From Candidatus Bathyarchaeota archaeon (GTDB lineage: Archaea; Thermoproteota; Bathyarchaeia; Bathyarchaeales; Bathycorpusculaceae), in assembly GCA_963827165.1 (NCBI GenBank), contig CAWGZR010000013.1:1-63695 (forward strand): a stretch of DNA of 63,695 nt. Reading direction: 5' to 3'. Positions within the stretch are counted from its first letter, which is position 1. Every line of letters begins with the position of its first letter. The notes under the pieces are model-generated. The model ran no database searches and was not told the origin of the DNA. It worked only from the letters and a program-made list of their open reading frames with translations. Below, in pieces: positions 303 through 63,695 of the stretch. Position numbers and translations under genes: made by a program.

Positions 303-381
303 AACCGAGGATCAACCCTTTCAGTTTTTTTGAAAGCGAGAAGAAAAATCAAAATAATCAATTTTGGAGGAAAAAAGAAAA

Positions 382-1278
382 ATGAGTTTTGTAGAAGACG
401 CTCTAACCTTTGTTGATAGCGCATCGATTCAGTATCCAGAACTGAACCAGGTCATCATAGAGATGACTATGCCAAACCTGATCTTGAAAAGACTACTCAC
501 AGACGATGTTCTCAAGCATGGCCGAACTAAGACTTACACGATTGAAAACGGCTCTCACAGTGTAGGCATAAGCGAAGTGGCGCCAGGCACCGCTGCACCC
601 GTCGATTACACGCCTATGAAATTCGCGACGGTTAGCCCTTACAAACGTATGGAAGCCATCGAGATTCCTAAAGAGGTCGTTGAAGACGTTGACTTGCCAG
701 TGGTTAACCAGCAGCTCAAAAGACTTGCGAGACGTCTCGCATATCAGATTGAGTTAGATTGCTGGACCGTGATGCTTGCCGCAGTTCCAAGCGCAAACAG
801 CTTTGCATGCACCGGCAAAACAATCACTGTAACAGGCACCGAATTCACCAAGGCAAACACTGCAGGCATGGAAGACTTCAACAATGCTGAGGCTTTGATT
901 AACGCCGGAGACTTTTTGATGGACACGATTGTCTGCAACCCGATCCAGAAACGAGACATCAAGAACCTGCCCAACTACAGCCTATACCGCAACGAGATCT
1001 CGCCGATTACTCAGAAGCCGATCCAGATGCTGGGCGAATGGGAACTTTGCTGGTCAAACGTTGTTCCCGCAGGGACTATCATTTGCTTGTCAACAGGCAA
1101 GAACCTTTCTGCTTCCTATGCCCCTCTAGGGATGTTCCTTGTGAAGAGACCGCTCACAACCGATGTTGAGCTGCTCAAATCCAAGGAACTGGTGAAGCCG
1201 ATTCTCAGCACCCGATATGCTCCGATCATACTCAACGGTCAATGCCAAGCCGCGATCACAGGGTTAGCAACTAGTTAA
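382..1278 (+). CDS. Major capsid protein, HK97-like fold
   Basis: About 298 aa; 'VSPYKRMEAIEIPKEVVEDVDLPVVNQQLKRLARRLAYQIE' and 'IVCNP' resemble HK97-fold capsid motifs; GGAGG upstream; virion gene order. Confidence 0.8.
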   Translation: MSFVEDALTFVDSASIQYPELNQVIIEMTMPNLILKRLLTDDVLKHGRTKTYTIENGSHSVGISEVAPGTAAPVDYTPMKFATVSPYKRMEAIEIPKEVVEDVDLPVVNQQLKRLARRLAYQIELDCWTVMLAAVPSANSFACTGKTITVTGTEFTKANTAGMEDFNNAEALINAGDFLMDTIVCNPIQKRDIKNLPNYSLYRNEISPITQKPIQMLGEWELCWSNVVPAGTIICLSTGKNLSASYAPLGMFLVKRPLTTDVELLKSKELVKPILSTRYAPIILNGQCQAAITGLATS

Positions 1279-1357
1279 GCTTAGCTTGTTTTGCCCATAT
1301 CTTTTAACTATGGACCGTAAAGCCGGCTTCAAATTAAACAATTTACGGAGACTTTTC

Positions 1358-1819
1358 ACGTCAACTTACCCAGCGTTAACTTCGTTAGAAGAAGTTATCG
1401 GCTTTCTAAATGCTACCGGACCAGATAGCAACAGCAATTATCTGGTTTACGGGCTATCTGTTTCAAGCAACAGCGTCCAAGCATACGTTGATCACGCGAA
1501 CACCTACATAGGCAGCTTGGTGCCCACCGTAACATCAACGGATCCGCGTTACTCGTTTGCGCAGTTAGCCGCACTTGATCTTGCGTGCATGAGCGTTTTA
1601 GTTGCAGCAAGCGGCGGCATGCTTTTGGGCGCGGCAGATTACAAACTTGGCGACTTATTCGTAACTAAAGGCACCATCGGAAAATTCTCATTTCAAAGCG
1701 CAGTACAAAGCTTCCAAGACAGTTTCACCCGAAACATAGTAAATCTTTCAACTGTAGCCATAGGCGCTCAAGCACGGCTGGGGCATGAAGTTCCTCATTG
1801 TAGAGGATGGGGGCATTAG
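1358..1819 (+). CDS. Putative head-tail adaptor (ORF track start 1286; probable start ACG 1358)
   Basis: Follows the capsid gene; 'TSLEEV..FL' N-terminus and 'DYKLGDLFVT' are typical of adaptors; GGAG 7 nt before the ACG. Confidence 0.55.
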   Translation, partial: TSTYPALTSLEEVIGFLNATGPDSNSNYLVYGLSVSSNSVQAYVDHANTYIGSLVPTVTSTDPRYSFAQLAALDLACMSVLVAASGGMLLGAADYKLGDLFVTKGTIGKFSFQSAVQSFQDSFTRNIVNLSTVAIGAQARLGHEVPHCRGWGH

Positions 1820-1821
1820 GA

Positions 1822-1926
1822 ATGAAGAAGCGAAAGCTTAGGCTTCTGCTTATTCCGGTTGCTATAGTGCTTTTCGTGATAGGTTGGCTTCTTTATTATT
1901 TTGGCAGAAAGCGGAGGAAAGCTTAG
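1822..1926 (+). CDS. 34-aa single-pass membrane peptide
   Basis: MKKRKLRLLLIPVAIVLFVIGWLLYYFGRKRRKA; fills the gap in the viral operon. Confidence 0.55.
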   Translation: MKKRKLRLLLIPVAIVLFVIGWLLYYFGRKRRKA

Positions 1927-2364
1927 ACGTCAACTAATCATGCCCTAGCCGTTTCGGAGTTGCTGCAGGAGAATTGGGCGCTATCAAGTCCAGTGGCTAC
2001 CGCGAATATTTTGTGGCCTACCACTCGCATGGACGCGATTGGGATTACTCAGGGAAAAGGAACCTTGCAAGTAGCCGTCTATAACGCGAGCCCAAGCAAG
2101 CAGGTGGATGCGCTTAGCCGCGAATGTTATCTGGTTACTGAAAAACTTGTTGTAGACATAATTGTTGTTAACGCTAGCCAAAGCGCAGCTGATTTAGCGG
2201 TTGCAGAATCTATTTTGGAGGCATTTCAGGCTGAAGTTAGCCGCATTATACACTTGCAAGACCCAAACTATGTGGTGACCGGTGAGCCGATTCACAGTAA
2301 CGCAACTGAAGTAACCCGCGTCATGATCAACATTGACGCCGTTTACTTTAGCATTTCAAGTTAA
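1927..2364 (+). CDS. Putative tail terminator/neck protein
   Basis: Size, beta-rich C-terminus and position in the head-tail module; GGAGG then ACG at 1927, in frame with ORF 1960..2364. Confidence 0.45.
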   Translation, partial: TSTNHALAVSELLQENWALSSPVATANILWPTTRMDAIGITQGKGTLQVAVYNASPSKQVDALSRECYLVTEKLVVDIIVVNASQSAADLAVAESILEAFQAEVSRIIHLQDPNYVVTGEPIHSNATEVTRVMINIDAVYFSISS

Positions 2365-2380
2365 TAGGCAGGTGAAGTCA

Positions 2381-2500
2381 ATGGCAGAACAAAAAAGGGC
2401 AGCAAACCAGAAATTTAAAACGAAATTTAGCACTTGGGTTGTAACTTACAAAAACGGCTCTCAGGTTCTTGTAGAGCATAGAGTAACGAAAATAGCTTAA
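2381..2500 (+). CDS. 39-aa viral hypothetical protein
   Basis: GGTGA ribosome-binding site; MAEQKRAANQKFKTKFSTWVVTYKNGSQVLVEHRVTKIA; its 3' end recurs at 35654 and 36338. Confidence 0.6.
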   Translation: MAEQKRAANQKFKTKFSTWVVTYKNGSQVLVEHRVTKIA

Positions 2501-2536
2501 GGAGAATACAGCGGTCTGCATCAAAGGTGAAGCGAT

Positions 2537-2899
2537 ATGAGTATTTCTGTTCAGGTAAATTTGTCAAATTTTGATACGTTGAGCAGTTGCTTTGATTGTC
2601 TTTGTGAGCAGTACCCAGAAGCCGTTAGGCAAGCATTGATGAATGTTGCTCAGGATATTTTGGCGACTGCAAACACGTTAGTTCCAGTCAGAACAGGCTT
2701 TTTGAAAAGCACCATAGCGATTGAGCAACCCAGCAATTTCCAACTTAAAGTTAAAGCTACAGCGCCTTATGCGTATTATGTTGAGTTTGGCACTAGGCGC
2801 ATGTCTGCCCGGTTGTTTTTGACTAACGCGGTTAATCAGCACTTAAGTGAGCTTGCACCGGGAATTGAACAGCAAATCCAAGATTTACTGCAAGGTTAA
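2537..2899 (+). CDS. HK97 gp10 family tail-completion protein
   Basis: Hallmark motifs PVRTGFLKSTI and YAYYVEFGTRRMSARLFL. Confidence 0.9.
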   Translation: MSISVQVNLSNFDTLSSCFDCLCEQYPEAVRQALMNVAQDILATANTLVPVRTGFLKSTIAIEQPSNFQLKVKATAPYAYYVEFGTRRMSARLFLTNAVNQHLSELAPGIEQQIQDLLQG

Positions 2900-2937
2900 C
2901 GGTTTTAAAAGTAATCATTTTAATCGAGGTGAAAAAT

Positions 2938-3359
2938 ATGAGTTTAGCAACTACGCCAGTTCTAAGTCGGAATGCAGTTGTCCAGGTGGGCGGAGCGGCA
3001 ATCGGTTTTCTCACCGACTTCACCATGGATGTTAAAGCGGAAATGATTAAGGAGTATGTTTGCGCGTCAGGTGGGTCTCCGTCGCCAGCTTTTACGGCAA
3101 GCGGCAACCAGTCTTACACGTTTAAGGCTTCGGCGCTTTATGTTCCAGCAAACTACGCAGCACTACTAACAGATGTTCTCAACGGCTCATTGGTTACAGT
3201 TATTGGGGTCCACAAGGCACGACCACAGGATCAGGCACTCCAAAAATCACGTTGAGCAACGTTGTCTTAACCGCTTACAGCGTCAAAAACGGACAAAAAG
3301 GCACAATAGCGAATGATATTAGCGGTGAAGCGCAAAGTGTGGCCACGAGCACCTTCTAG
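2938..3359 (+). CDS. Tail tube (major tail) protein with a 1-nt frameshift near 3203
   Basis: ATTGGGGTCC lacks one T relative to paralogous copies (IWGPQG); restored frame ends ...ISGEAQSVATSTF*; lies after gp10 and before the tail chaperone. Confidence 0.7.
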
Positions 3360-22700: not shown

Positions 22701-23568
22701 TTAAACTTCCCTTTTCTTTAGTGTCCAAAAGCCTTTTTTTGCTTGATGAAGGTTCCTGAACTCCAACTCTTTGAAAGCCTCCTCTAATTCTTCCTCGGTG
22801 TTCATGACAATTGGCCCTCCCCAAGCTACAGGTTCACCTAACAGCGTCCCTGAAACAAACAAAAAACGACTATCATTCAACGAGGTTACCTTTGCTATAT
22901 CTCCTTCCCCTAAAACTGCGCATTGCGCCTGCAAGATCTGCCGTCCAGCAATATCCACAGAGCCTTCAACGACATATGCAAATACAGTGTTGTTTTTAGG
23001 AACTAAATGCTCAAATGATTTTTCAGCGGCCAATTCTACATCAAAATATTCAATGTCAACAGCTAAATCCTCAACTGGCCCTTTGGTGCCCTCAACAACT
23101 CCAGCAATTACTTTAACTTTTGCGCCCTTGGTTTGGACGACTGGGAATTTGCTTCTTTTCTATCCCTCGATAGTTGGGATCAATCATCTTTTTCTTTGCG
23201 GGTAAGTTTATCCAAAGTTGAAAGCCCTGCACCAGTCCGTTATTTTCCAGTGGCATTTCTTGATGAATTATACCTGAGCCAGCCGTCATCCATTGAACGT
23301 CTCCAGATTTGATTACGCCCTTATTACCCTTGCTATCCCCATGTTCAACTTCACCAGTCCACATGTAGGTGACTGTTTCAATTCCTCTATGAGGATGCCA
23401 AGGAAAGCCTTTGATGTAATCTTCCAGTTTGTCTGAACTAAAGTGGTCCAAAAGCAAGAAAGGATCAAGTGTAGAGTCATCATCGTTCCCCAAGACTCTG
23501 TTTAGCTTAACTCCTGCACCCTCAATAGTTGGTTTTCGGTTCAAAATCTTTTTTATCTGTCTATCCAA
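22701..23568 (-). CDS. Pirin family protein, frameshifted near 23145
   Basis: DPFLLLD, HPHRGIETVTY, QLWINLP; GGPIVMNT in a second frame. Confidence 0.9.
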
Positions 23569-34830: not shown

Positions 34831-35202
34831 TTAACCTTTCAGTAAATCTTGGATTTGTTGCTCAATCTCGGGCGCTAATTCGCCAAGATGCTGATTGACT
34901 GAGTTAGTGAGGAAAAGCCTCGCCGACATTTTCCTTGTGCCAAACTCCACATAATACGCATAGGGAGCTGTCGCTTTGACCTTAATTTGAAATTTGCTTG
35001 GCTGCTCGATTGCAATGGTGCTTTTCAAATAGCCTGTTCTGACTGGAACTAGCGTGTTTGCCGTCGCTAAGATGTTCCGGGCGACATTCATCATAGCTTG
35101 CCCAACCGCCTCGGGATATTGCTTGCAGAGACACTCGAAGGAGCCGCTCAATGCATCGAAGGTTGAAAGATTAACTGAAATCTTGACACTCATCAAAATC
35201 AC
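34831..35202 (-). CDS. HK97 gp10 family protein, second copy
   Basis: Near-identical to 2537-2899 (PVRTGYLKSTI, YVEFGT). Confidence 0.9.
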   Translation of the reverse strand: MILMSVKISVNLSTFDALSGSFECLCKQYPEAVGQAMMNVARNILATANTLVPVRTGYLKSTIAIEQPSKFQIKVKATAPYAYYVEFGTRKMSARLFLTNSVNQHLGELAPEIEQQIQDLLKG

Positions 35203-36410: not shown

Positions 36411-36621
36411 ACGGATACGCTTGCTGAAAGAACGAGGAATGAAAATTCTACCATTTGACGAGCTTCATGCCCTGAAAACAGGTAGCCTGCTGCTCTCCCA
36501 TCGAAATATACCCCTTGTTGACGCCATAATCGCGTCCTATGTGAAGACAGGAGATGCAGAATATGTGTTGACTGATGACCCACACTTTAAGACATTGAGC
36601 GTCAAAACAAAATGGCTTTAG
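36400..36621 (+). pseudogene. PIN/VapC toxin C-terminal fragment
   Basis: DAIIAS...VLTDDPHFKT, similar to the C-terminus of 42758..43141. Confidence 0.75.
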
Positions 36622-37534: not shown

Positions 37535-37951
37535 GTGAAAAACCTGAACATAGACCTCTTAAAGCGCCGCGTAGAAATGCTCGACAGCGTTTGCAAAGGC
37601 TTCCATCCCTCTTCAGTAATAAGCCAACTTGCCGAGAAATACCATGTTTCCGCGAGGTGCCTATGGTGCGATTGGGAACGCCGAAGAAAATGGGTGCCCA
37701 CACTTCTAAACCTAGAAAACTACGGTGAGTTCGCGCAGGAAATAGAGACAAAACTTAACGCTGTCCAGAAAGCTGCCTGGAGCACCTACCTTCGAACGGA
37801 AAATGACAACGCACGAGTGGGCGCTTTAAAAGTCATCCTAGAAAGCCTCGAAATCCATAGCAACGCAGTACTGTCAAAAGAAGTTATGTCTCGGCTCAGA
37901 GAGGTCGAAGAACTGGCAGGTAAGAAAACAAAGGAGATTGAAAAGGCTTGA
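37535..37951 (+). CDS. Putative terminase small subunit
   Basis: N-terminal HTH-like segment plus helical C-terminus; first gene of the operon ending in TerL; positional inference. Confidence 0.5.
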   Translation: MKNLNIDLLKRRVEMLDSVCKGFHPSSVISQLAEKYHVSARCLWCDWERRRKWVPTLLNLENYGEFAQEIETKLNAVQKAAWSTYLRTENDNARVGALKVILESLEIHSNAVLSKEVMSRLREVEELAGKKTKEIEKA

Positions 37952-38236
37952 ACACGGACAAAATCATGAAGCGTTTGGAGACTGCCGAGAAAAAGCTAGT
38001 CTCAAACATGGAGAAGTTTGTTGTTAGGGATTTTGGCGGCGTCTACTTTGGCGATTGCGGCGTTGGACTTTCGCAGAAGCAGTTTGACGCATGGGTTGAA
38101 TCGCCAAGAGCCAACGGTTAAGGTCACGGTCATAGAGTACAGGGTAGATGACGCCGCCGGGGATGGCGATGCTGCCTCAAGTGGCCGTTCTGCCTGCTTT
38201 GAAATAGAACAAAAGTCAGTTCGAATGGAGGAGTAA
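37948..38236 (+). CDS. Viral hypothetical protein, probably frameshifted near 38100
   Basis: TTG start overlaps the upstream stop (MNTDKIMKRLE...) and probably continues in the 38018..38236 frame. Confidence 0.4.
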
Positions 38237-38238
38237 AT

Positions 38239-38805
38239 ATGAGCGAAAAGAAAACAACAATAAAGGTTCCCGACGCCTATCTGCCACTTCTGGAAGACCT
38301 CAGGTTTCTTAGAAGCGACGAAAATAACCCAAACAAAATGACCATAAAACAGAAGGAGCAAATTTGGAGCAGCCTGCAAAGATTCGGCTGGACCTACCCG
38401 ATTATAACCAACAAAGACGGCGTTTTTGCGGATGGAGAGCAACGTGCCAGCGTCAGTACTGAGCACGGTGAGTTTTTTGCGCCAGTCTTGCGTCTGCCAG
38501 TTTCTGACGTTGACAGAAGGATGCTGCGGCAAATACTAAACAAACTAAAGGGCAAGCATAACAAGCAGCTTGACGGCGCTGAGTACATGCGCATTGCAGC
38601 TGCCGGCGAGAAAGATTTTCTAAAAGCCCTACTGGAATCTGTCGGTGAGAGGCTCCCCGAAGACACGGGTGGATTGTCTGATGGATCAAATATCATTCCT
38701 GAACTCTACGAGCTCATAATAGAATGCAAAGATGAGAGCCAACAGCACAGTTTCTTCGAGAAACTCAAGGGTGAAGGTTACAAAATAAGAGTTCTCAATT
38801 TGTAG
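38239..38805 (+). CDS. ParB-N domain protein of phage packaging regions
   Basis: NPNKM, SLQRFGW..PII, DGEQR; C-terminal 'LIIECKDE.QQ...FEKL..EGY'. Confidence 0.8.
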   Translation: MSEKKTTIKVPDAYLPLLEDLRFLRSDENNPNKMTIKQKEQIWSSLQRFGWTYPIITNKDGVFADGEQRASVSTEHGEFFAPVLRLPVSDVDRRMLRQILNKLKGKHNKQLDGAEYMRIAAAGEKDFLKALLESVGERLPEDTGGLSDGSNIIPELYELIIECKDESQQHSFFEKLKGEGYKIRVLNL

Positions 38806-38818
38806 GAGGCATCACCGT

Positions 38819-39502
38819 TTGGACTTTGATTTTATAAAAACGTGGAATAAACCAGAAAGCTTTCGAGCCCAAAGCGTCGTGGGCAGCTTTACGTTAAATG
38901 ATGTAAAGTTGGAGAAGCGCTTTAAAGGTTCACTGCCGATAGAAGACGGCGACTGGCAAATCGGAGTCATCGTTGGCCGCAGCGGCTCAGGCAAATCAAG
39001 CATAGCCAAACAAATGTTCCCAGACGGATATATCACAGGCTTCCAGTACACGCACCAATGCATAATAGACGAATTTCCAGAAAGCCTCGAAACAAGCGAA
39101 ATAACACGTATGCTCTGCAGCGTCGGCTTCGCCTCCCCGCCAGACTGGCTCAAAACCTACAGTTGCCTGAGCCAAGGCGAAAAGATGCGCGTTGATTTAG
39201 CCCTTGCACTGAGTCTACCCCAGAAAACTGTGGTTTTCGACGAGTTCACATCAGTTGTAGACCGAGAAGTCGCAAAAATCGCCTCATACGCAATCAGCAA
39301 GGCGATTCGACGCGAGAAAGACAAGAAATTCATAGCCGTAACCTGCCATTACGATGTAGTCGATTGGCTGGAGCCAGACTGGGTTTTCTGCACCGACACA
39401 ATGGAGTTTGACCGAAAAAAAGAACTCGGCCGCCCATTGAACTCAAAGTTCATCGGTGCGGCACTTCCATGTGGACGATGTTTCGGCAGTATCACTATCT
39501 AA
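38819..39502 (+). CDS. ABC-type ATPase (phage-associated, GNAT-linked)
   Basis: GRSGSGKS, LSQGEKMR, FDEFTSVVDR, VTCHYD. Confidence 0.9.
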   Translation: MDFDFIKTWNKPESFRAQSVVGSFTLNDVKLEKRFKGSLPIEDGDWQIGVIVGRSGSGKSSIAKQMFPDGYITGFQYTHQCIIDEFPESLETSEITRMLCSVGFASPPDWLKTYSCLSQGEKMRVDLALALSLPQKTVVFDEFTSVVDREVAKIASYAISKAIRREKDKKFIAVTCHYDVVDWLEPDWVFCTDTMEFDRKKELGRPLNSKFIGAALPCGRCFGSITI

Positions 39503-39960
39503 ACGGCAAGCTTGGCGCAGGCGTCAGATGCTACGTTGCCCTCTACCAGCAAAATCCGGTAGCGTTTATCGCAGTCGCTCATGTCCGAATGAAAAGTCAC
39601 TTCTTCCGTGTCAGCCGACTCGTCGTCTTGCCCGATTACCAGGGCATAGGGATTGGAAAGCGACTACTCAATTTTATCGCTGAACTTTACACTTCACAGG
39701 TGGATTTGCCGTTCTATCTGGTTACAAGTAATCCTCAGCTGCTGCGAGGAAACCTCGGCAAATGGAAAGTGAAGCGATTAGGGCATGGAAGCCATGGGAG
39801 AGGAAACACTAGGATAAATCTGGGTCTCGCGGGTTCGACGAGCAGGGGGCGCCTTACCGTTTCACTTGAATATATCCCTCAAAATCTAACCTGGGCTTTG
39901 GCCTCTCAAAGTTCTGGTGTGCTCAAAGAAGGAGTTCTGATGGAATGCAAAAAACAATAA
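39421..39960 (+). CDS. GNAT acetyltransferase in the -1 frame relative to the ATPase
   Basis: FRQYHYL, RLVVLPDYQGIGIG; frame open back to the A7 run at 39415-39421. Confidence 0.85.
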   Translation, partial: RTRPPIELKVHRCGTSMWTMFRQYHYLNGKLGAGVRCYVALYQQNPVAFIAVAHVRMKSHFFRVSRLVVLPDYQGIGIGKRLLNFIAELYTSQVDLPFYLVTSNPQLLRGNLGKWKVKRLGHGSHGRGNTRINLGLAGSTSRGRLTVSLEYIPQNLTWALASQSSGVLKEGVLMECKKQ

Positions 39961-41195
39961 TAATCCGCTATAAGCCTCACGCTGGGCAAATTGAGTTCCA
40001 TAAGTGTCCTGCAAGATTTAGGGTGCTTAACTGTGGACGCCGCTGGGGCAAAACCATTGCAGGCGCCAACGAATTCATAAGCCAAATGTGGAAACAAGGT
40101 CCAAACATAGTAGGCTTCGCCGTGGCACCTACCTATTGGCACACGCAGCGGCAATGGACCGAATTTCTCAACTTCTGCCCAACTGAGCTAATAAGGGGCA
40201 TTTACCGCTCTGGCCGGCATGTAATCCTCAAAGGCAACCGCAATATCTGGTTTAAAAGCGCCGACAACCCTGACTCACTGCGCAGCCAAGGCGTAAAAGT
40301 TCTCTGGGTTGACGAGGGCTCTCAAATCGCGGAGGAAGCCTGGACGCTTGCCCTCAGACCAGCATTGATGGATTATAAGGGAATAGCTTTCTTCACCGGC
40401 ACACCAAGAGGGCATAACTGGTATTTTCAACTCTGGACCCGCGGCCAAGACCCCTCGCAAACTGATTACAAGAGCTGGAGCTTCCCCAGCGGCAGCAACC
40501 CCTATCTGGATCCAGCGGAGATTGCTTCTTTTGCCCGTGACATGCCTGAGCTCGCTTACCGCCAAGAAGTTATGGCCGAGTTTCTCGAGGACGTTGGCTC
40601 TGTCTTCAGGGGCGTAGACCACATAGTCAAAGGTACCTTCCAACCGCCTGAACCATACAAGCAATATGTAATGGGCGCAGACCTCGCCAAACTCGTAGAC
40701 TTCACAGTGCTAATCGTTCTGGACATGGATGGGCGCCTATGCGCCTTTGACAGGTTCGCACAGTTAGACTGGGTTTTCCAACGCAAACGCATAGTTCAAC
40801 TAGCCCAACAATACAACGCCCGCCTACAAATCGACAGCACAGGAATCGGAGACCCAATCTGCGACGAACTCCAACGTGAAAACGTTCGAGTTGACGGCTA
40901 CAAATTTACCAATACCACAAAAAAAGACCTCATAGAAAACCTGAGCATAATGATCGAGAACGGAAAGATTACAATACCGCAAATTCCCGAGTTAATAAAT
41001 GAACTCAAACTCTACGGCTACAAGATCAGCGCCAATGGGAACGTGCAGTACGGCGCACCAGAAGGCTACCACGACGATTGCGTAATTGCACTCGCGTTAG
41101 CTGCTTGGCAACTTAAGCGTTATCCACCTCTTGAAGGATCCGGTGTCGCGGTGATTAGGAAAAAGCCAGTTTACAGAGACGAGGATGATGATTAA
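39945..41195 (+). CDS. terL: Terminase large subunit
   Basis: PHAGQ, CGRRWGKT, VDEG, TGTP, nuclease GADLA...DFT, HDDCVIALALA. Confidence 0.95.
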   Translation: MQKTIIIRYKPHAGQIEFHKCPARFRVLNCGRRWGKTIAGANEFISQMWKQGPNIVGFAVAPTYWHTQRQWTEFLNFCPTELIRGIYRSGRHVILKGNRNIWFKSADNPDSLRSQGVKVLWVDEGSQIAEEAWTLALRPALMDYKGIAFFTGTPRGHNWYFQLWTRGQDPSQTDYKSWSFPSGSNPYLDPAEIASFARDMPELAYRQEVMAEFLEDVGSVFRGVDHIVKGTFQPPEPYKQYVMGADLAKLVDFTVLIVLDMDGRLCAFDRFAQLDWVFQRKRIVQLAQQYNARLQIDSTGIGDPICDELQRENVRVDGYKFTNTTKKDLIENLSIMIENGKITIPQIPELINELKLYGYKISANGNVQYGAPEGYHDDCVIALALAAWQLKRYPPLEGSGVAVIRKKPVYRDEDDD

Positions 41196-42522: not shown

Positions 42523-42765
42523 GTGTTTGAAATGGAATCAACTGAAGTAGTTGTAACACGAAAAGGCCAAACAACAATCCCGTCTCGCCTCAGGAAGAAA
42601 TTCAAAATTGAGGAGGGAACAAGACTTGAAGTTATCGAAACCGAAGAGGGAATCTTGTTCAAACCAAAGATTTCTTTCTGGGATTTAGCAGGGTCTGGAT
42701 CCAAGTTTGCGTCAGTAGAAGAAATGAAGAAACTCTTAGATGAATTAAGGGAAGAAGATGCCTAA
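42523..42765 (+). CDS. AbrB/MazE-type antitoxin
   Basis: VTRKGQTTIP..LRKKF.IEEG; overlaps the PIN gene. Confidence 0.9.
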   Translation: MFEMESTEVVVTRKGQTTIPSRLRKKFKIEEGTRLEVIETEEGILFKPKISFWDLAGSGSKFASVEEMKKLLDELREEDA

Positions 42766-43141
42766 AGCCGTATACGATACCAGATATTTTGTTGAGTACT
42801 TTTATTCAAAAGATGATAAAGCCCTGCAAAAGATGAAGTTGGAAAAAAATCGTGGAGAGCGCTATATTTCAGCCATAGTTATTCATGAATTATACCGACT
42901 TGTCTTGGCACGAGAGGGTCGAGAAACCGCGTCTCTGAGAAAGACCACTGTAGAACAGGAATTCAAAGTAATCCCTGTTGGCTCAGAGGTTGCAAAAACT
43001 TCAGCTGAGTTGAGGCAAAGATACAGACTCTCGATGGGAGACAGCATGATTGCTGCAACAGCATTCATACTCAAGGCTGTCTGCATCACCGATGATCCAC
43101 ACTTCAAAACCGTTAGCGAAATAAAAACAGCTTGGATCTGA
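42758..43141 (+). CDS. vapC: PIN-domain VapC toxin
   Basis: YDT, HEL, DSMIAATA, TDDPHF. Confidence 0.9.
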   Translation: MPKAVYDTRYFVEYFYSKDDKALQKMKLEKNRGERYISAIVIHELYRLVLAREGRETASLRKTTVEQEFKVIPVGSEVAKTSAELRQRYRLSMGDSMIAATAFILKAVCITDDPHFKTVSEIKTAWI

Positions 43142-44787: not shown

Positions 44788-45305
44788 TTATAGTTGTTCG
44801 ATTTCAATGATAAGTCGAGCCAAAAGATTGGGCTCTAATCGAAAACCTTTGCTTACCATCCTGACAACTGTTTCCTTCGCCTCCTCTTTATTCATCAACC
44901 CAGCTCTCAGGGCTGACATGACCACATATAGGCTCCCTTTAGTCTTTAATCCCCAAGCCTCCGCGAAAGTGTGTCCAGCCGATTCATCCATCAATAAAAG
45001 TACTTTCATTTCTTTGGCTAAAACGATTGCTTGAGCATCAGCCAAATGAATTTCTGGGGCGTTTTCAACTATTTTTTGGATTAAGTTTTGGGCTGACGAA
45101 TCCATTACCGCCAGTTTAATCCAGCCATCATTTACACATTCCTTAATTGTTAACGCGTCACTGAATCCATGTTTTAGTCCTTCGTCAACGGCTTCCACGT
45201 AAACTTCTTGCGGGACAATTATCTCGTTAAAGAGGTTTTTTAGCAGGTTTATTTTACCTATTTTGGCGAGCCACATCAGGGGCTATTGTCTGAGACTGAA
45301 TGCAA
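44788..45305 (-). CDS. DUF3368 PIN-like toxin
   Basis: IIVPQEVYVE, LLLMDE, GFRL; N-terminal frameshift; paired with UPF0175. Confidence 0.8.
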
Positions 45306-45318
45306 GGCCTAGTTCAAC

Positions 45319-45633
45319 CTATAGTTTTAGATCTTCTTCTAAGTCTTTTTGGGAATACTGTATAAGAATTCCTTTTTCATTGAGGATTTTGTAGAATTGC
45401 CAAAGAGATACATCGGCTAGTTTTGCTGCTTTCATCCCGGTGGCTTTTCCCTTTTGGTAGAGGCTAATGGCGTAGTCGATGTTTTTTTCTTTGATTCCTT
45501 TGTCAATTATTTCTCTGATCAGTGTGGATCGGTCTTTTTGCTCTCTGCCGGATAGGTCTTGAAGTTTTTCTATCGTTTCCTTCGATAGTCGCAAGCAGAT
45601 GGTTTCAGACATTGGAACTACCCTGTATTGCAA
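45319..45633 (-). CDS. UPF0175 family antitoxin
   Basis: RHH N-terminus; 'LYQKGK....KAAKLA.VS'; 'DLEEDL'. Confidence 0.8.
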   Translation of the reverse strand: MQYRVVPMSETICLRLSKETIEKLQDLSGREQKDRSTLIREIIDKGIKEKNIDYAISLYQKGKATGMKAAKLADVSLWQFYKILNEKGILIQYSQKDLEEDLKL

Positions 45634-55216: not shown

Positions 55217-56502
55217 TTACTCATTGCGTTTTTTCGCCTTCCTAAATAGCATAATACCTTGAGGGGTAGTGACAACATACTGCCAAGCTTGTTCGATCAA
55301 TTCGCCGGCTTCTTTTGCATCTTTAGCGGTTGCGTGATGGTAGTTTTCTGCTTCATCATCAATGGGTACTAAATGAGTATAGACTAAGGTGCTGTTTATG
55401 TTGCGGTGGCCTAGTACCTCTTTAACGTGAAGAATGTTTCTTGTCATGGCGTATTCTTTTGTAGCTTTGAAGTGCCTTAGAAGTGAAACCTTATTTGTTT
55501 TAGTCGTGGGTTCTGTAATTTGATTGCTAAGGCGTGTTTTTGTCGGTCATATTTCCAGCGAAAAGCGTTAAGATTGCCATTTCCAAATATGTAGTCGTTT
55601 GTTTTCGGTAGCATTAAGAGCCTTGCCATTAATCTGCTTGAGAGTTTTGCTTGTCTTGGGTTGCCGTGTTTTTCAGCTACGCATTTGAGGGTAAAGTTTT
55701 CTTCGTCTAGGTCGGTCCATTTGCATTGCCATAATTCGCCTATTCTAAAGCCTGTTTCTTTGAGTGCAAGCACGCAAGTTCCTACTTTTTTGCTGCAACC
55801 GGCTACTAGTGCATCGACTTCTTTTTCCAGCGGTACAAACGGTAAAGATTTTTTTGTTTCATAGTATGGGGGTTGCCACTGGATTTTTAGCATCTCGGCA
55901 TAGCTGTCATAGGCGCTTACAAAGTTCTGCTTGTATCCGTTGCTCCATTTTTCGTTTGTAGCAAGAATCGTTCTAACTGCTTCAGGATCATGCAAATTAA
56001 CGCCGCTTTTCTGGGAAAGATACCTTAGCAGTTTAACCCTTGTTTTTATCGTTGCGTCACTAAACTTGCCCTGTTTTTTTAGATACCACATGAAATCTAC
56101 GATTTCGCCTTGAATTGCTGTTTGGTGTGTTTGGTTTCGGCTAATTGCCACAACATCGGTTTCTTGTTGTGGTTCCAATTTTTTCGCCTTATCCTGTAGG
56201 ATTGCGCTTAATCGGTAATCGCTATTTGTCCTTGACAATTTAAAAGGGTTTGGTTCACTGAATCTAACGTTACAATCCTTGCAATAGTAACGCTGTAACG
56301 TTAAGCCTTCTGCAGTTTGCCTAGTTCCAGCTTTATCAAAAGGACCGACAGAACTACATTCGGGGCAGCTTAGATGTTGAGGTTCCTTTGGTGGATGATG
56401 CCCTGTAGGCTCATCTATCTTCTCATCAAGTGCATTCTCTAAGATGACCGGTGGAGCAGTAATTGGGATGCTATCCTGTTTATGAATTTCAACCTCGACC
56501 AT
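55217..56502 (-). CDS. Tyrosine recombinase/integrase with N-terminal Zn finger; 1-nt frameshift near 55480
   Basis: CPEC...CKDC; ETGFRIGE; FH-x-LRH across the shift; LGHRNINSTLVY. Confidence 0.9.
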
Positions 56503-56586
56503 GAGCTTTAAGAAGCCTCCTCTGGCGGCTTTCAGTCTGGTTTATCCATCCTTGGCACTCGCATGCCCAACTGCTGTCTGTTTTGA

Positions 56587-59007
56587 TTAATTGGGGGTCG
56601 CCTCCATAGCTAACGAAGGGTGTTGGCAATCTTCTGTGTGGTAGCGTCCACAATCACCACAAACTCGTGAGGGCGAAAGCTTTAGCGGTTCAGGTTTAAC
56701 GGGTTTAACGGATTTAACGGGTTTAACGCTCTCAGGATTGAACTCTTTACTCTCTGTTGTAAGTTGCTTTGGCTCTTTGCCCTGCAAACTTGGGGGTAGG
56801 GGTTCATTTGTGACTCCGTTAACTTCGTTAACCCCGTTAAAGTCAGATAGCTTTGTGAATCCTTCGGTGACTTTGTATGCTTCTATGAGTTTAGGCGTAG
56901 GGTAATGTCCACGCTTAGAGGTCAGTAATCCTTCCGTCTTTAGCGTTGCTATTAGAGGTCTTAACTGATTGTTTCCTGCTAAGCCGAATTTTGTCATCAA
57001 CTCGTCGTTTGTAGTGTGGTTTTGAGTCACAAGGAAGCAAAGAATCTCTGTCAGGTTCTCGATGGGATTTTTGGCAAGTTGCCCTTTTACCTTTCGCATT
57101 AGGTCTTCTACGTCTTCCGAGGTAATTTTTTCAAATTTGTGGTCTTGCGCTAATATTCCTAAGCCAGCGTTTGTGTATTCTTCAGTCAAGAAGTCAACTA
57201 TTGCCTTAACGTGTTCATCAGTGACTGTAACGGTTGTGTAGTCGTCGTTTGTTGATAATGTACAATGGGCAAGTGCGACGCTTAAGCGTGCAATTTTATA
57301 TTTCACGTCTATGCTGACGAGCGGTATAGCTTCCAAGAAGAACTTGTTGTAAAGTTCCGTTGACTGTTGCAGTAGTAGGTTTATGGCTATGTCTGTCCAT
57401 TCAACTTTTGCTTTATTGCTCCATGCCCACTTTAGGACTTCCGAGAACTGTTCAAGCGCTGGATTGGGTTCTTGTGTTATCTTTCTGTTGATCATTTGAG
57501 GAGTTACGTCTCGTTGGTCGGAGAATACGCATAGATCTATTCTGGCGATGCTTGTGGGATCTAGGATTGTTGACGTAGCCCGGATGGGATGGAGAAAACT
57601 GCCAAGACTCTTGGTGCTATAACGGTCTGCTTCAGGGTCAACTGCATTGTAGATTCTAATTTGCCTGGTTCTTGCGTTGGTTGTGTTCTTGGCTGCTTTT
57701 GCTATGGATAATATGCCGCTTCTTTCAGCTTCAGCTAGGGCTGCCCAACATGAAGCGCTCAGCTTGTGTGCTCCGTCAACTGCTAAGAGTTTGCGATCCA
57801 TTAGGGGTAGAAATCCCCAATCGATGAACCATCCTTCTTTTTCTGTCTGGGTAGCTGTACCTGTTAAGCCAACCGTGGAGGCTGTTTCTGCGGAGATGAC
57901 GAGTCCTGCCTTGAGGAGCACTGAGAGTTTCTTGACTGTTTCGCTTTTTCCGGTGGTTGTGTCGCCTATTACTGCTATTATTGACCAGCCGCGTTGCAGT
58001 TCACCGTTAAACTTTACTTGAATTGGCGAAAAATAACCTAGAAGGGCTGCTTTAGTGATGTTTTGCCTACCGACAACATGACTGTATAGCTCAAAGTTGT
58101 CCACTATCCATTTCAGGCGTTCACTGACACTTTTGTCTTTAAACTCTTGCTGAATTATGGATAGTTTGTTTGTGTCAAAGCTTGAGTTGTCTTCTGGGAA
58201 TTCAACGGCGTAGCCGAGCATGGTTGTTTTTTGTGTTCGGGGGTTGGGTAAGGGTATGCCAGTTAGCTTTACTAGAGTGCTTGGTTGGAAAGTTAATGGA
58301 GTGTCGGAGACAACGTATAGGTCAAGGTGCTTGTATTCATAGCCTTTATCATCGACTATTTTGTCTCCCAATTTATCAAGCGTAAAAACTTCAGGGCGCA
58401 CTCTTAGGGCGTAAACGGTTCTATGTTTTAGTTCCTTTCTGATGATTACCTTAGTGTCTGGATATATGGTTTTTAGGTACTTGTTTAGTCTGCCGTTTTT
58501 TGTTTCCTCAGACACTGCAACTAAGCTAACGTTGAGGGGGTCCTCGATTTTTATGCTTGGGGCTACAACGTAGGATTCTTCGCTTTGTTCCTTTATGTCT
58601 GCTCTTATTTGGGATGGAATGCTGTAGGCGGTGCTTGTACTTGAAATTACAGCTTGGATAGTTACTGGTTTGCAGATTAGGTCGGGATGCTCAATTTCGT
58701 TTATGTGTTGCAGAATTGCTGGGCTATCGTCTGATTCTATTGGGCGTGACGAAGTCCGAGTTGTTTCTGAGTTTGGGGATCGCTGGATTGGGGCTGCAGT
58801 TTGGTGACCACTTTCGCAAATGTACCAGTTCGTTTGTATGTCATCCTTGTGGTGCTCTGTTACTGGTTTTTTGCATGTTGGGCATAGCATAAGCAACTTT
58901 GGGGGTGCCTGAGAGTTGTTATTGTTCTCGCTATCAACTGCTGAAACGTTAGGCGTTGGCTGTTCCTGCGCTTCTTGTTCTGTTATAATGCCTGTTTCTT
59001 GAGTCAT
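56587..59007 (-). CDS. MCM-like replicative helicase of an integrative element
   Basis: Walker A GDTTTGKSE, STVGLTG, LAVDG, LAEAERSGILSIAKA, IARIDL; Zn ribbons at both ends; probable start 59007. Confidence 0.8.
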   Translation of the reverse strand: MTQETGIITEQEAQEQPTPNVSAVDSENNNNSQAPPKLLMLCPTCKKPVTEHHKDDIQTNWYICESGHQTAAPIQRSPNSETTRTSSRPIESDDSPAILQHINEIEHPDLICKPVTIQAVISSTSTAYSIPSQIRADIKEQSEESYVVAPSIKIEDPLNVSLVAVSEETKNGRLNKYLKTIYPDTKVIIRKELKHRTVYALRVRPEVFTLDKLGDKIVDDKGYEYKHLDLYVVSDTPLTFQPSTLVKLTGIPLPNPRTQKTTMLGYAVEFPEDNSSFDTNKLSIIQQEFKDKSVSERLKWIVDNFELYSHVVGRQNITKAALLGYFSPIQVKFNGELQRGWSIIAVIGDTTTGKSETVKKLSVLLKAGLVISAETASTVGLTGTATQTEKEGWFIDWGFLPLMDRKLLAVDGAHKLSASCWAALAEAERSGILSIAKAAKNTTNARTRQIRIYNAVDPEADRYSTKSLGSFLHPIRATSTILDPTSIARIDLCVFSDQRDVTPQMINRKITQEPNPALEQFSEVLKWAWSNKAKVEWTDIAINLLLQQSTELYNKFFLEAIPLVSIDVKYKIARLSVALAHCTLSTNDDYTTVTVTDEHVKAIVDFLTEEYTNAGLGILAQDHKFEKITSEDVEDLMRKVKGQLAKNPIENLTEILCFLVTQNHTTNDELMTKFGLAGNNQLRPLIATLKTEGLLTSKRGHYPTPKLIEAYKVTEGFTKLSDFNGVNEVNGVTNEPLPPSLQGKEPKQLTTESKEFNPESVKPVKSVKPVKPEPLKLSPSRVCGDCGRYHTEDCQHPSLAMEATPN

Positions 59008-59473
59008 GGTTTTGTTACCTCTTCTTCGCCGCGTTTTATCCAGAGACGCCCTGTACTGCTTGTTTGGTAAACAATGTACAGCTCTGGGAAGTCTTCTCAA
59101 GGGTTTTAAGGGCCGCAAAAAGTCAACTTGTGATCCTCTCAATACTAAGCCATGAGTCACTGAGACTTTTTGCAGACTATCGATTAGTTCCTTTTCAGGG
59201 GACTTTTTAGATGGGTAAACTGTCATCTTTTCTTACTCCTTTTCTTGAGCTATTCGGTTTAAACACCTGGCAAGCATACGGTTTAGGAGGCATCGAAATA
59301 GGGTTTGAGTGGCGCGTTTTGAATGGTTTTTTGCCATGCTTTGGCTCGGCTGCTTTTTCATTGCTTTCTAATTATCTATGGGCGAGTTTTCTCGTGCTGT
59401 TTTTCACATCTATTATAATATCGCATGTTTTATTATGAACTGATAGTTAGACTATTAGTAGAGGTTTAAAGAC

Positions 59474-61310: not shown

Positions 61311-62889
61311 ACGGTTAAACAACTAACACAAGAGAAAAAAGAAGCAAAAACCTCAAACGGCGCCAACTTGGGTTTTGAGGCAAAGTTATGGACGACTGCG
61401 GATAAACTACGCAACAACATGGATGCGGCTGAGTACAAACATGTCGTTTTAGGGCTTATTTTCCTCAAGTACATTTCCGATGCTTTTAAAGAAGTTTATA
61501 ATGAGTTGAAAGAATGAAAAACTGGCTGACCCTGAAGACGTAGATGAGTATAAGGTCCGAAATGTCTTTTGGGTTCCAGCTAAGGCAAGCTGGGATTTTC
61601 TGCAAAAGAACGCGAAACAACCAACAATTGGAGTTACTGTCGATGATGCCATGGATGCGATCGAACGGGAGAACAGCAGTCTAAAAGGCGTTTTACCAAA
61701 GAATTATGCCCGTGAAAGCCTTGACAAGCAGAGGCTTGGAGAATTAATCGATTTAGTCGGCACGATCGGCTTAGGCGATCGGGAAAGCCGAAGCAAAGAT
61801 GTCCTCGGCAGAGTTTACGAGTATTTTCTGGGTCAGTTTGCTGATGCAGAGGGCAAAAAAGGCGGGCAATTCTACACTCCCAAAAGCATAGTGCAACTCC
61901 TCGTCGCTATGATTGAACCCTTCAAAGGCAGAGTCTTTGACCCCTGCTGCGGCAGCGGCGGCATGTTCATACAAAGCGAAAAATTCGTAGCCGCCCACCA
62001 AGGAAGAATCGACGACATACACATCTTCGGGCAAGAATCAAACCAGACCACTTGGCGCCTCTGCAAAATGAACCTAGCCATAAGAGGCATAGAATCCAAA
62101 GAAGTAAGATGGAACAACGAAGGCAGCTTCCTAAACGACCTCACAAAGATTTGAAAGCAGACTACCTTCTTGCTAACCCGCCATTTAATGATTCTGACTG
62201 GAAAGGCGAAATGCTAAGAGAAGACATCCGATGGAAGTACGCGTTCCACCCGCTGGAAACGCCAACTTTGCGTGGGTACAACACTTCATTCACCATTTAG
62301 CACCCCATGGCGTAGCAGGTTTTGTGCTTGCAAACGGTTCCATGAGCTCCAACCAATCAAATGAAGGAGAAATACGCAAGAACATAACCGAAGCCGACTT
62401 AGTAGACTGCATGGTTGCTTTACCTTCACAATTATTCTATAATACTATGATTCAGCCTGCCTATGGTTCATAGCCAGAGATAAACAAAACAACAAATTCC
62501 GAGATCGTAGGGGTGAAGTGCTATTTATTGATGCCCGAAAGCTTGGCATAATGATAGACAGAAGACACCGAGAACTAAACCAAGAGGACATTAAAAAAAT
62601 ATGCCGATACCTACCATGCATGGAGAGGTGAACCCATAAACGGGCAAACAGTCGAATACCGAGATATTGCCGGGTTCTGCAAAACAGTGAAACTTGAAGA
62701 AATAAGAAAACAAACACATATACTAACACCCGGGCGCTTTGTTGGCAATGAGGAAGAAGTGGATGACTTGGAAGAATTCGAAGAAAAAATGAGGCGACTA
62801 ACTAGTGAACTTGCCAAACAAATCAATCAAAGCCGACTACTTGATGAAGAAATAACGCGGAATCTTAGCGAATTGGTTATGATTTCTGA
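61311..62889 (+). pseudogene. hsdM: Type I RM methyltransferase HsdM with several frameshifts (possibly sequencing errors)
   Basis: [52 protein letters not shown] spread over several frames. Confidence 0.85.
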
Positions 62890-63695
62890 AAAAGTCAATT
62901 TTAAGAAAACGGAAATAGGATACTTGCCATTTGATTGGTCAGTTAAGGAAATGGGTGCGATCGCTTTGTATTTAATCGAGGCATACCGCCCGAATATTCC
63001 AAAATTGGTCATAAGGGTTTGAATCAAAAATGCATTAGAAACGGGAGGGTGACATTAACCGATGTCAAATTCCATAAAATTAGTAAACGATTTACTGAAG
63101 AGAAGAGAATACAAAGAAACGATATATTGATAAATTCTACTGGCGTAGGTACGCTTGGTAGAGCAGCAAATATCCGAAACAATCCTTCTGATGCGGTATT
63201 AGCAGATTCTCACATTACTTAGCCAGAATCGACCCAAAGATTGCTGATCCTTTATTTGTTTCCTATTACTTGAACTCAATCCAATCTGCAATTGAAGCTA
63301 TGGGTCAGGGAACTTCAGGTCAACAAGAACTATCTCGCAACCTTGTTAAGGGCATCAAAATTCCATATCCCAATATCATTGAACAAAAGCTAATAGCTAA
63401 ACTACTTTATTCTTTAGATGAAAAATTTGATCTAAACAGCCAAAATAACCACGCTCTCGAGGCTGTTGGTGAGGCTGTTTTTAAGCGTTGGTTTGTTGAT
63501 TTTGGGTTCCCAACCAAGAAGGCAAGCCCTATAAATCATCAGGCGGAGAAATGGTCTACAACCAAGAGTTAGGAAAAGAAATTCCATCGGGATGGCAGCT
63601 AACGACTCTTGAAAAGGTTGCAGAGTTTACAAGAGGTTTTTCTTATAATGGTTTGGAGAAGAGCACCATAGATGGTGATTTGGTGTTTATGACTC
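62879..63695 (+). pseudogene. hsdS: Type I RM specificity subunit HsdS, frameshifted and truncated by the window edge
   Basis: FKKTEIG..P.DW, INSTGVGTLGR, EQKLIA..L.SLD, FKRWFVDF, ELGKEIPSGW. Confidence 0.8.

Follow-up and report, generated by a model that had tools for sequence, protein, structure and literature searches.

In the 63,695-nucleotide stretch of a Candidatus Bathyarchaeota archaeon genome analysed here (contig CAWGZR010000013.1, positions 1 to 63,695; hereafter the window), an ABC ATPase and a GNAT acetyltransferase encoded just ahead of a large terminase subunit (TerL) are, as judged from their sequences, the two halves of one gene joined by a -1 change of reading frame, and not the separate genes that the first-pass annotation of this DNA had described. 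We infer the slip itself from the sequence and consider it very likely that this recoding is programmed. The gene is otherwise a typical member of a known virus family of predicted function, and its well-supported programmed -1 recoding is apparently unpublished. The recoded gene is made up of the following elements:

38819-39502, + strand: ABC ATPase domain (ABC_tran, phrog_11143) in a zero-frame open reading frame (ORF) of 227 amino acids (aa) with a TTG start
39403-39406, + strand: GGAG motif resembling a Shine-Dalgarno (SD) sequence, 8 nucleotides (nt) upstream of the slippery heptamer
39412-39960, + strand, first ATG at 39469: GNAT domain (Acetyltransf_7/1/10, phrog_11143) with a conserved linker, in the -1 frame
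39415-39421, + strand: slippery heptamer A_AAA_AAA (zero-frame CGA AAA AAA, then G), site of the -1 frame change
39429-39462, + strand: hairpin of seven G-C-rich outer pairs and an inner stem of 4-6 bp, 7 nt after the heptamer

The family phrog_11143 (357 positions) spans both ORFs: residues 14-204 of the ATPase correspond to its positions 12-199 (E 3.1e-58) and residues 1-97 of the GNAT ORF to its positions 214-309 (E 6.5e-23). The label that JGI gives to the family is 'ABC-type ATPase with predicted acetyltransferase domain', and in Pfam the two parts match ABC_tran (E 2.4e-7) and Acetyltransf_7 (E 2.5e-9), the latter together with Acetyltransf_1 and Acetyltransf_10. Nine ATPase columns are invariant among 24 relatives (G53, G56, G58, K59, S118, G120, D141, E142 and H177), and we take them to comprise the Walker A lysine, the signature serine and glycine, the Walker B Asp-Glu pair and the H-loop histidine; in the GNAT domain, 40 sequences share without exception Q77, G78 and G80, which belong to the Q/R-x-x-G-x-G/A motif that binds coenzyme A (CoA). 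NCBIfam has no dedicated model for the ATPase-GNAT combination, all ABC matches there being far under their cutoffs, and a PDB sequence search returned generic ABC ATPases only.

No continuous ORF runs through both domains in the window, and a -1 shift at 39415-39421 is required to join them. The ATPase and GNAT ORFs overlap by 34 nt, the GNAT frame being -1 relative to that of the ATPase. Since a TGA at 39409-39411 shuts the -1 frame upstream and the zero frame stops at 39500-39502, the change of frame has to fall between 39412 and 39502, where the run of seven A is the sole slip-prone sequence. Past this site the zero-frame ORF continues for 27 codons, overlapping the GNAT frame, which is open from 39412, that is, 19 codons ahead of its first ATG. 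The -1-frame codons ahead of this ATG encode the linker that is conserved in the in-frame fusions (phiE255 gp29 and 24 fused IMG/VR relatives). SD-like motifs, GGAGG or GGAG, precede the ParB (GGAGG), ATPase and TerL starts, and none is found upstream of the GNAT ATG at 39469. Among 47 distinct archaeal-type junctions (alignment A2: 23 with seven A, one with eight and 23 with nine; below A7, A8 and A9), the ATG between the run and a conserved tryptophan is missing in 31 and any ATG, GTG or TTG in 27, and the peptide stretch before the tryptophan stays conserved all the same. Linker homology, conservation of the run and the missing start codons and SD motif together argue for synthesis of the GNAT domain as part of a fusion protein, by way of a programmed -1 event. 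The A7 run of the window is not an assembly error, because a contig from another sequencing run (X3) crosses it without an insertion or deletion.

The split arrangement is widely kept. A scan of IMG/VR gave 80 loci, whose frame relation, taken from the tblastn frames, was -1 in 35, in frame in 44 and +1 in one. With the window and two phages added, the -1 rows number 38, and 35 of these carry a zero-frame A_AAA_AAA or A_AAA_AAG at the joint, in many rows with a stop codon that shuts the -1 frame immediately ahead of the run. The genome from which the window comes (14 contigs, 3.13 Mb) contains eight ParB-ATPase-GNAT copies, all of them with the -1 relation, and the slip run is kept as well by copies in six genomes of the same genus; a DNA search found matches in 14 of 24 same-genus genomes, whereas all 16 genomes that belong to the order's other families were without one. 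The A-run stands at the joint in all 47 distinct Bathyarchaeal-type copies. As identity to the window drops to 62% (ATPase) and 43% (GNAT), the arrangement has outlived much divergence. Among the in-frame relatives, a run at the joint was found in only one of 34 distinct sequences, L035, where ten A give an uninterrupted fusion; L067/L068 and L080 have minor slip motifs away from the joint.

Two designs of the slip signal occur. The window heptamer fits the pattern X_XXY_YYZ in the zero frame at the frame junction, and GGAG is present 8 nt before the heptamer at all A7 sites (23/23), at 12 of the 23 A9 sites and in the one A8 copy; the 3' end of the 16S rRNA of the window genome carries CCUCC. 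The structure that stimulates -1 sites typically lies 5-9 nt downstream of the heptamer. A hairpin with a G-C-rich outer stem is found 7 nt after the run at every A7 site (mean minimum free energy, MFE, -21.9 kcal/mol over 55 nt; mean z -2.4) and at none of the 24 A8/A9 sites (A9 mean MFE -9.8, mean z about 0), and there is no consensus structure across all 47 copies, only the A7 subgroup folding. Third-position entropy is 0.04 in the outer stem (five of six positions invariant) as against 0.89 in the rest of the segment (3/24 invariant). The bare A9 runs contain overlapping heptamers. Both designs are present within the window genome and interleave in the quick tree described below, which indicates that they have replaced each other more than once. 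On these sequence features, the slip at the A7 site of the window is probably ribosomal.

The same joint is split in other virus lineages. By tblastn, the ATPase was found in 64 records of isolated phages and the GNAT in 61, with 59 listed in both tables, and their frame relation was reckoned by hand from the printed coordinates. Nineteen of the 59 have the -1 relation (12 from Streptococcus, three from Oenococcus or wine, two each from Lactococcus and Thomasclavelia), and the other 40, from Gordonia, Arthrobacter, Porphyromonas, Burkholderia, Aeromonas, Leptospira, Tenacibaculum (pT24) and others, are in frame. In phages 315.4, MismyG and P335 and in the IMG/VR locus L038 the joint sequence is GGTTTTTC; Vinitor-27 has a T-run plus A_AAG_GGC at this place and TR-TP1 a G-run. 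In each of these cases the -1 frame encodes the conserved linker ahead of the GNAT start given in the annotation. An IMG/VR relative of the Firmicute-phage clade has nine T at the joint and a +1 relation (L037:4560-4600). A quick tree of 88 ATPase domains separates an archaeal clade (43 A-run rows and L035) from the Firmicute clade, sets L046 and L103 apart on long branches and nests L076 (A9) inside the in-frame phiE255 clade. Its starred branches force at least three changes of frame state, so the domain joint appears, on this quick tree, to have been split independently in several virus lineages. Tandem ATPase-GNAT paralogues were also seen, in L039/L043/L045 and L055 of IMG/VR, with an aspartate decarboxylase and a 223-aa gene between the two in L039; such pairs hint at a heterodimer.

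Several observations weigh against a programmed and ribosomal slip. Compensatory double changes are seen in none of the 11 stem pairs, the invariance of the stem could be due in part to the two overlapping reading frames, and the structure-free A8/A9 sites may slip during transcription. Moreover, three of the eight genome copies have extra frameshifts inside the ATPase; some copies of the module are decaying or contain assembly errors, and other genes of the window are broken as well. If RNA polymerase slipped on the A-run and added one A to part of the transcripts, the fusion would arise without a ribosomal shift. Runs of A8/A9 length are the kind used for transcriptional slippage, and 24 of the 47 copies have such a run without downstream structure; L035, with its ten A, is the in-frame DNA equivalent, and the T9 of L037 goes with a +1 relation. 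The window run, however, is just A7 and is accompanied by GGAG and a hairpin at ribosomal -1 spacing, as are all 23 A7 sites, and the Firmicute relatives shift on runs of five, so that we regard slippage by the polymerase, a process reviewed in PMC5009743, as distinctly unlikely. The view that ATPase and GNAT are two separate proteins, with the GNAT made from ATG 39469 or by re-initiation and no fusion at all, agrees with the annotation of two genes in Oenococcus, Lactococcus, Streptococcus and Thomasclavelia phages, with the top 120 database relatives, all called at 197-282 aa, and with an ATG just ahead of the conserved tryptophan in 16 of the 47 copies. It is very improbable in the face of the start codons missing from the majority of copies, the ATG without an SD-like motif, about 17 conserved -1-frame codons upstream of that ATG, an invariant slip run and the 44 of 80 IMG/VR relatives that are true fusions. 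Decay or assembly error in a dead provirus, which would make the split functionless, might be suspected from the truncation of the element, from other frameshifted genes in the window and from the extra frameshifts in three paralogous ATPases. This reading is already contradicted and is hardly credible: the same -1 relation recurs at the same codon in isolated phages and in 47 distinct sequences drawn from many assemblies, the frames show no other break, and the X3 contig confirms the A7 run.

The recoded gene is accompanied by four further genes of the same operon:

37535-37951, + strand: small protein of 138 aa, first gene of the operon, a TerS candidate by position only
37948-38121, + strand: 57-aa ORF (ORF call), with no relative among the IMG/VR loci compared
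38239-38805, + strand: putative ParB/Srx N-terminal-domain protein of 188 aa (phrog_498, phrog_620, family profile against the PDB)
39945-41195, + strand: TerL, 416 aa (Terminase_6N/6C, phrog_2)

All genes of the operon lie on the + strand, and the spacing along the 138-aa ORF, the 57-aa ORF, ParB, ATPase, the GNAT ORF (counted from its first ATG, 39469-39960) and TerL is -4, +117, +13, -34 and -16 nt. No membrane or permease gene occurs among the operon ORFs between 37535 and 41195 (ORF list and Pfam). Coordinates, spacing and family matches agree in this respect with the first-pass annotation, which had seen ParB-N, ABC ATPase and GNAT tightly packed before TerL without a permease. TerL possesses both the ATPase and the RNaseH-like nuclease domain (Terminase_6N, E 2.5e-16; Terminase_6C, E 2e-8; phrog_2, E 7.7e-43). 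The gene ahead of ParB had been called TerS-like, a name that suits its position and that no family match supports: the 138-aa protein has zero Pfam matches and weak PHROG matches only, and in Atlas it groups with hypothetical proteins from viruses and Bathyarchaeota, HTH_11 being present in 41% of the members of one cluster. Its relatives lie upstream of ParB in three other copies of the same genome and between GNAT and TerL in some IMG/VR relatives.

The ParB-like protein of the window has no Pfam match at E<=0.1, but its assignment is carried by PHROG (phrog_498, E 1.2e-14; phrog_620, E 1.7e-11) and by a profile built from 31 relatives, which matches solved ParB proteins (7bnk, E 2e-12). 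At E<=0.01, Pfam ParB_N was detected in 16 of these 31 relatives and not in the window copy, and the protein also resembles the ParB-N part of a phage methyltransferase family (PHROG) and of type II methyltransferase models (PADLOC). G66 and R69, within 'DGEQR', are invariant in the alignment, and the C-terminus forms a short conserved domain. HTH_ParB matches no member of the 31-sequence alignment, and the window protein is only 188 aa long; a ParB of chromosome or plasmid partition was rejected, as the helix-turn-helix (HTH) DNA-binding domain is missing.

The gene order around the module is not due to chance, given that its flanks recur: of 33 close IMG/VR relatives (L004-L036) examined by tblastn, 31 have ParB ahead of the module and 25 have a TerL relative behind it. 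For the distant loci, where 150 of the 167 neighbour ORFs from 33 loci were put to Pfam, ParB_N is directly upstream in eight, once with a ParB-methyltransferase fusion, and terminase domains are at most three genes downstream in 12. An aspartate decarboxylase adjoins the module in L039, L048 and L054, followed in L048 by a family III CoA-transferase, and a formyltransferase does so in L076, L078 and phiE255; Dam and ASCH are also among the neighbours of the distant loci. No permease was found near the seven other genome copies or in the 33 distant loci, and an ABC transporter was rejected as there is no permease partner there or in the operon. TerL lies 1.4-2 kb downstream of the module in Streptococcus 315.4, MismyG and Lactococcus P335. 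The module is virus-borne, as had been proposed.

The proposed linkage to terminases holds for most of the close loci and about a third of the distant ones; in the window genome, TerL is beside only three of the eight copies (five have no adjacent TerL) and a full head module surrounds just one (contig 5, 21-36 kb). In phiE255 the ATPase-GNAT gene comes after the tail-fibre genes, and in Thomasclavelia TR-TP1 the module sits among replication genes. With these placements the designation of the module as packaging-coupled is unsupported: we read the terminase neighbourhood as a late-operon placement, common yet not constant, and a mechanistic link of the module to packaging is improbable. The seven further ParB-ATPase-GNAT copies are on contigs C3, C5 (two places), C9, C10, C11 and C12; three of them share an upstream gene pair of about 245 and about 145 aa, and one of these three is beside an integrase. 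Intact type I genes for HsdR and HsdS adjoin one module copy, and a different copy has HsdR fragments beside it. In the window itself, the reported type I restriction-modification locus (61651-63572) proved to be a methylase broken over three frames (hsdM, 61651-62154, 62052-62300 and 62231-62473), after which part of a specificity-subunit gene remains; this hsdM is a pseudogene or an assembly error.

We know of no experiment on the ABC ATPase-GNAT family. Predictions in print, which the first-pass annotation mentioned for ParB-N and GNAT/Mom-like proteins, do include this family: PMC7824862, citing Iyer 2013, gives acylation of a DNA base as the predicted role of a GNAT coupled with an ABC ATPase, so the DNA-modification reading is not new. 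A phage ParB homologue has been found to activate a DNA thymine dioxygenase on double-stranded DNA (PMC13229309), and the GNATs treated in PMC12839542, PMC10853773 and a ParA preprint are other GNATs. The ParB gene upstream, the terminase downstream and the decarboxylase, CoA-transferase and formyltransferase neighbours fit the predicted DNA acylation, and from this context and the published prediction we give DNA about an even chance of being the acyl acceptor. PADLOC returned generic matches only (ParB-N as part of type II methyltransferase models, the ABC part in mad3). A complex prediction for ATPase (alignment A6) and ParB (alignment A5) scored 0.00 and is uninformative either way.

The structure models contribute little to the question of the substrate. 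The model of the window GNAT (pLDDT 81) has a generic GNAT fold, resembles small-molecule and protein acetyltransferases with TM values of about 0.5-0.6 and bears no sign of a nucleic-acid substrate, a point against DNA acylation. The model of the fused L035 protein (pLDDT 85.4) resembles ABC nucleotide-binding domains; a single solved chain, the tRNA(Met) cytidine acetyltransferase 2zpa_B (rank 26, E 5e-8, TMq 0.29), aligns with both of its domains. With the same anatomy and the same recoding, the acceptor could be something else: a protein (ParB, a packaging or a host protein), or else RNA, for example the tRNA that TmcA acetylates. Besides the nearest solved folds, which include protein N-acetyltransferases, and the two-domain alignment, this would agree with phage GNATs described as acetylating host RNA polymerase (PMC7824862). 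On the other side stand the ParB-N partner, constant and of a DNA-associated fold, the Dam, ASCH and ParB-methyltransferase fusions among the neighbours and the published prediction, which names a DNA base (PMC7824862); the match to TmcA, moreover, is weak. We consider an acceptor other than DNA rather unlikely. The ATPase of TmcA is of the helicase type and not of the ABC class. It has also to be asked whether the host retains these copies, with the module marking the DNA of the cell itself, perhaps as the modifying partner within a defence island. Eight copies in a 3.1-Mb genome, only one of them within a full head module, the copies beside intact HsdR and HsdS or beside HsdR fragments, and the matches in 14 of 24 same-genus genomes would suit such a role, but no nuclease or effector is consistently linked to the genome copies or the distant loci, PADLOC matches are generic only, and copies beside integrase, tail-fibre or terminase genes look like remnants of mobile elements. 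Retention by the host is accordingly quite improbable.

Our working model, viral DNA modification by a recoded enzyme, is as follows. The module ahead of TerL consists of the genes for two proteins, the ParB-N protein and the ATPase-GNAT. Standard decoding of the latter would yield an ATPase-only protein ending 27 codons past the ATPase domain, and a -1 slip on A_AAA_AAA (39415-39421), probably ribosomal and aided by GGAG 8 nt upstream and the hairpin 7 nt downstream, would yield the full ATPase-GNAT protein. The frameshift would thereby determine the proportion in which short and long subunits enter an ABC dimer. With the ParB-N partner as DNA loader or activator, the ATPase-GNAT would draw on ATP and an acyl-CoA to place an acyl group on a base of the newly replicated viral DNA; the module would be expressed along with the late (packaging) genes, and the acyl mark may help the virus to escape restriction. 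For this explanation as a whole, a recoded ATPase-GNAT that acylates viral DNA together with ParB-N, the sequences give us a slight leaning in favour. More tentative, and falling somewhat short of an even chance, is the fuller proposal of a two-product gene in which a slip-set ratio provides the ABC dimer with one acyltransferase head that, with ParB-N, writes a new acyl mark on viral DNA, in which A7 plus SD-like motif and hairpin and bare A8/A9 are interchangeable signals that took each other's place repeatedly inside one clade, and in which the joint was split independently in several virus lineages.

The element in the window is a truncated provirus remnant in a Bathyarchaeia genome. Neither a portal nor a capsid gene follows TerL in the window, the downstream genes being non-viral and on the opposite strand, a further point against the working model. 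Further virus remnants are present at 364-3255 and 34831-35202, namely a capsid-like ORF (weak Phage_capsid_4 match) and two HK97-gp10-like genes on opposite strands 30 kb apart; the window contains pieces from more than one provirus. An integrase-like gene (weak Phage_integrase match) adjoins an 879-aa MCM-domain protein at 55477-59226 on the minus strand, a pair that looks like a separate integrated element. Toxin-antitoxin-like pairs and fragments lie around the element (42523-43141, 36421-36621 and 44788-45633), namely a MazE-like protein with PIN, one PIN fragment and a UPF0175 protein with DUF3368. At 22701-23568 (minus strand) the N- and C-terminal domains of pirin form two ORFs with an 80-nt gap, which may be another broken gene.

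The module can be set beside several known systems. Mom of phage Mu is a GNAT-superfamily enzyme that acylates adenine N6, has no ABC ATPase and is not known to have a ParB partner; Mu presumably carries mom after its tail-fibre genes, the place of the ATPase-GNAT gene in the Mu-like phiE255. The ATPase of TmcA aside, the enzyme (2zpa) resembles the window gene in that a P-loop ATPase is joined to a nucleobase-acetylating GNAT, and it differs in its substrate, tRNA. The dnaX gene has an SD-like motif upstream, a heptamer and a hairpin downstream, and its shifted frame ends the protein early. With GGAG, heptamer and hairpin, the A7 site of the window has this three-part layout, in a different gene family and with a shift that would add a whole domain. 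Programmed -1 shifts at sites of the A_AAA_AAR type are known (PMC5009743, PMC3711429) from E. coli dnaX as well as from the genes for magnesium chelatase in bacteria and methanogens; for the chelatase, in-frame fused homologues served as the argument for frameshifting, and such homologues exist for the present gene too. Closest is the system predicted by Iyer, Zhang, Burroughs and Aravind (NAR 2013), with the same two domains in the same order (PMC7824862), whose named example there, Tenacibaculum phage pT24, was among the tblastn matches to the window domains; in the window, by contrast, only a -1 slip would unite the domains, which occupy different frames, and the host is archaeal. With Mom the window protein shares the GNAT fold, its viral origin and the proposed transfer from acyl-CoA to a DNA base (PMC7824862), so that the 'Mom-like' label given earlier fits the fold, although only general GNAT families match (Pfam, E<=0.1; the presence of a Mom model in Pfam was not checked). 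In the ParB-dependent phage thymine dioxygenases, action on double-stranded DNA requires a ParB-N homologue in which no DNA-binding domain is obvious (PMC13229309); there the enzyme is an Fe/2OG dioxygenase, whereas here it is an ATPase-GNAT with ParB-N as its putative partner. No published frameshift in the ATPase-GNAT family was found, a provisional result that covers PMC5009743 in part and PMC3711429 without its supplement.

The family is widespread: it occurs in giant phages, in viruses of Bathyarchaeia and in phages whose hosts span many bacterial phyla, and the new DNA base modification predicted for it has been standing since 2013. Recoding explains why annotators list an 'ABC transporter' next to a small 'acetyltransferase' or a truncated 'hypothetical protein' where there is one gene, and it tells which product is suited to tests of the chemistry, for which the decarboxylase, CoA-transferase and formyltransferase neighbours suggest candidate acyl groups. 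To the study of recoding it contributes dozens of naturally occurring variants in which the same codon carries either a short run plus hairpin or a long bare run, archaea being among the hosts. Few programmed frameshifts are on record in archaea (PMC5009743). If true, the one described here would be a rare documented recoding event of an archaeal virus that does not involve tail-chaperone genes, and it would serve as a natural experiment on the exchange of frameshift stimulators.

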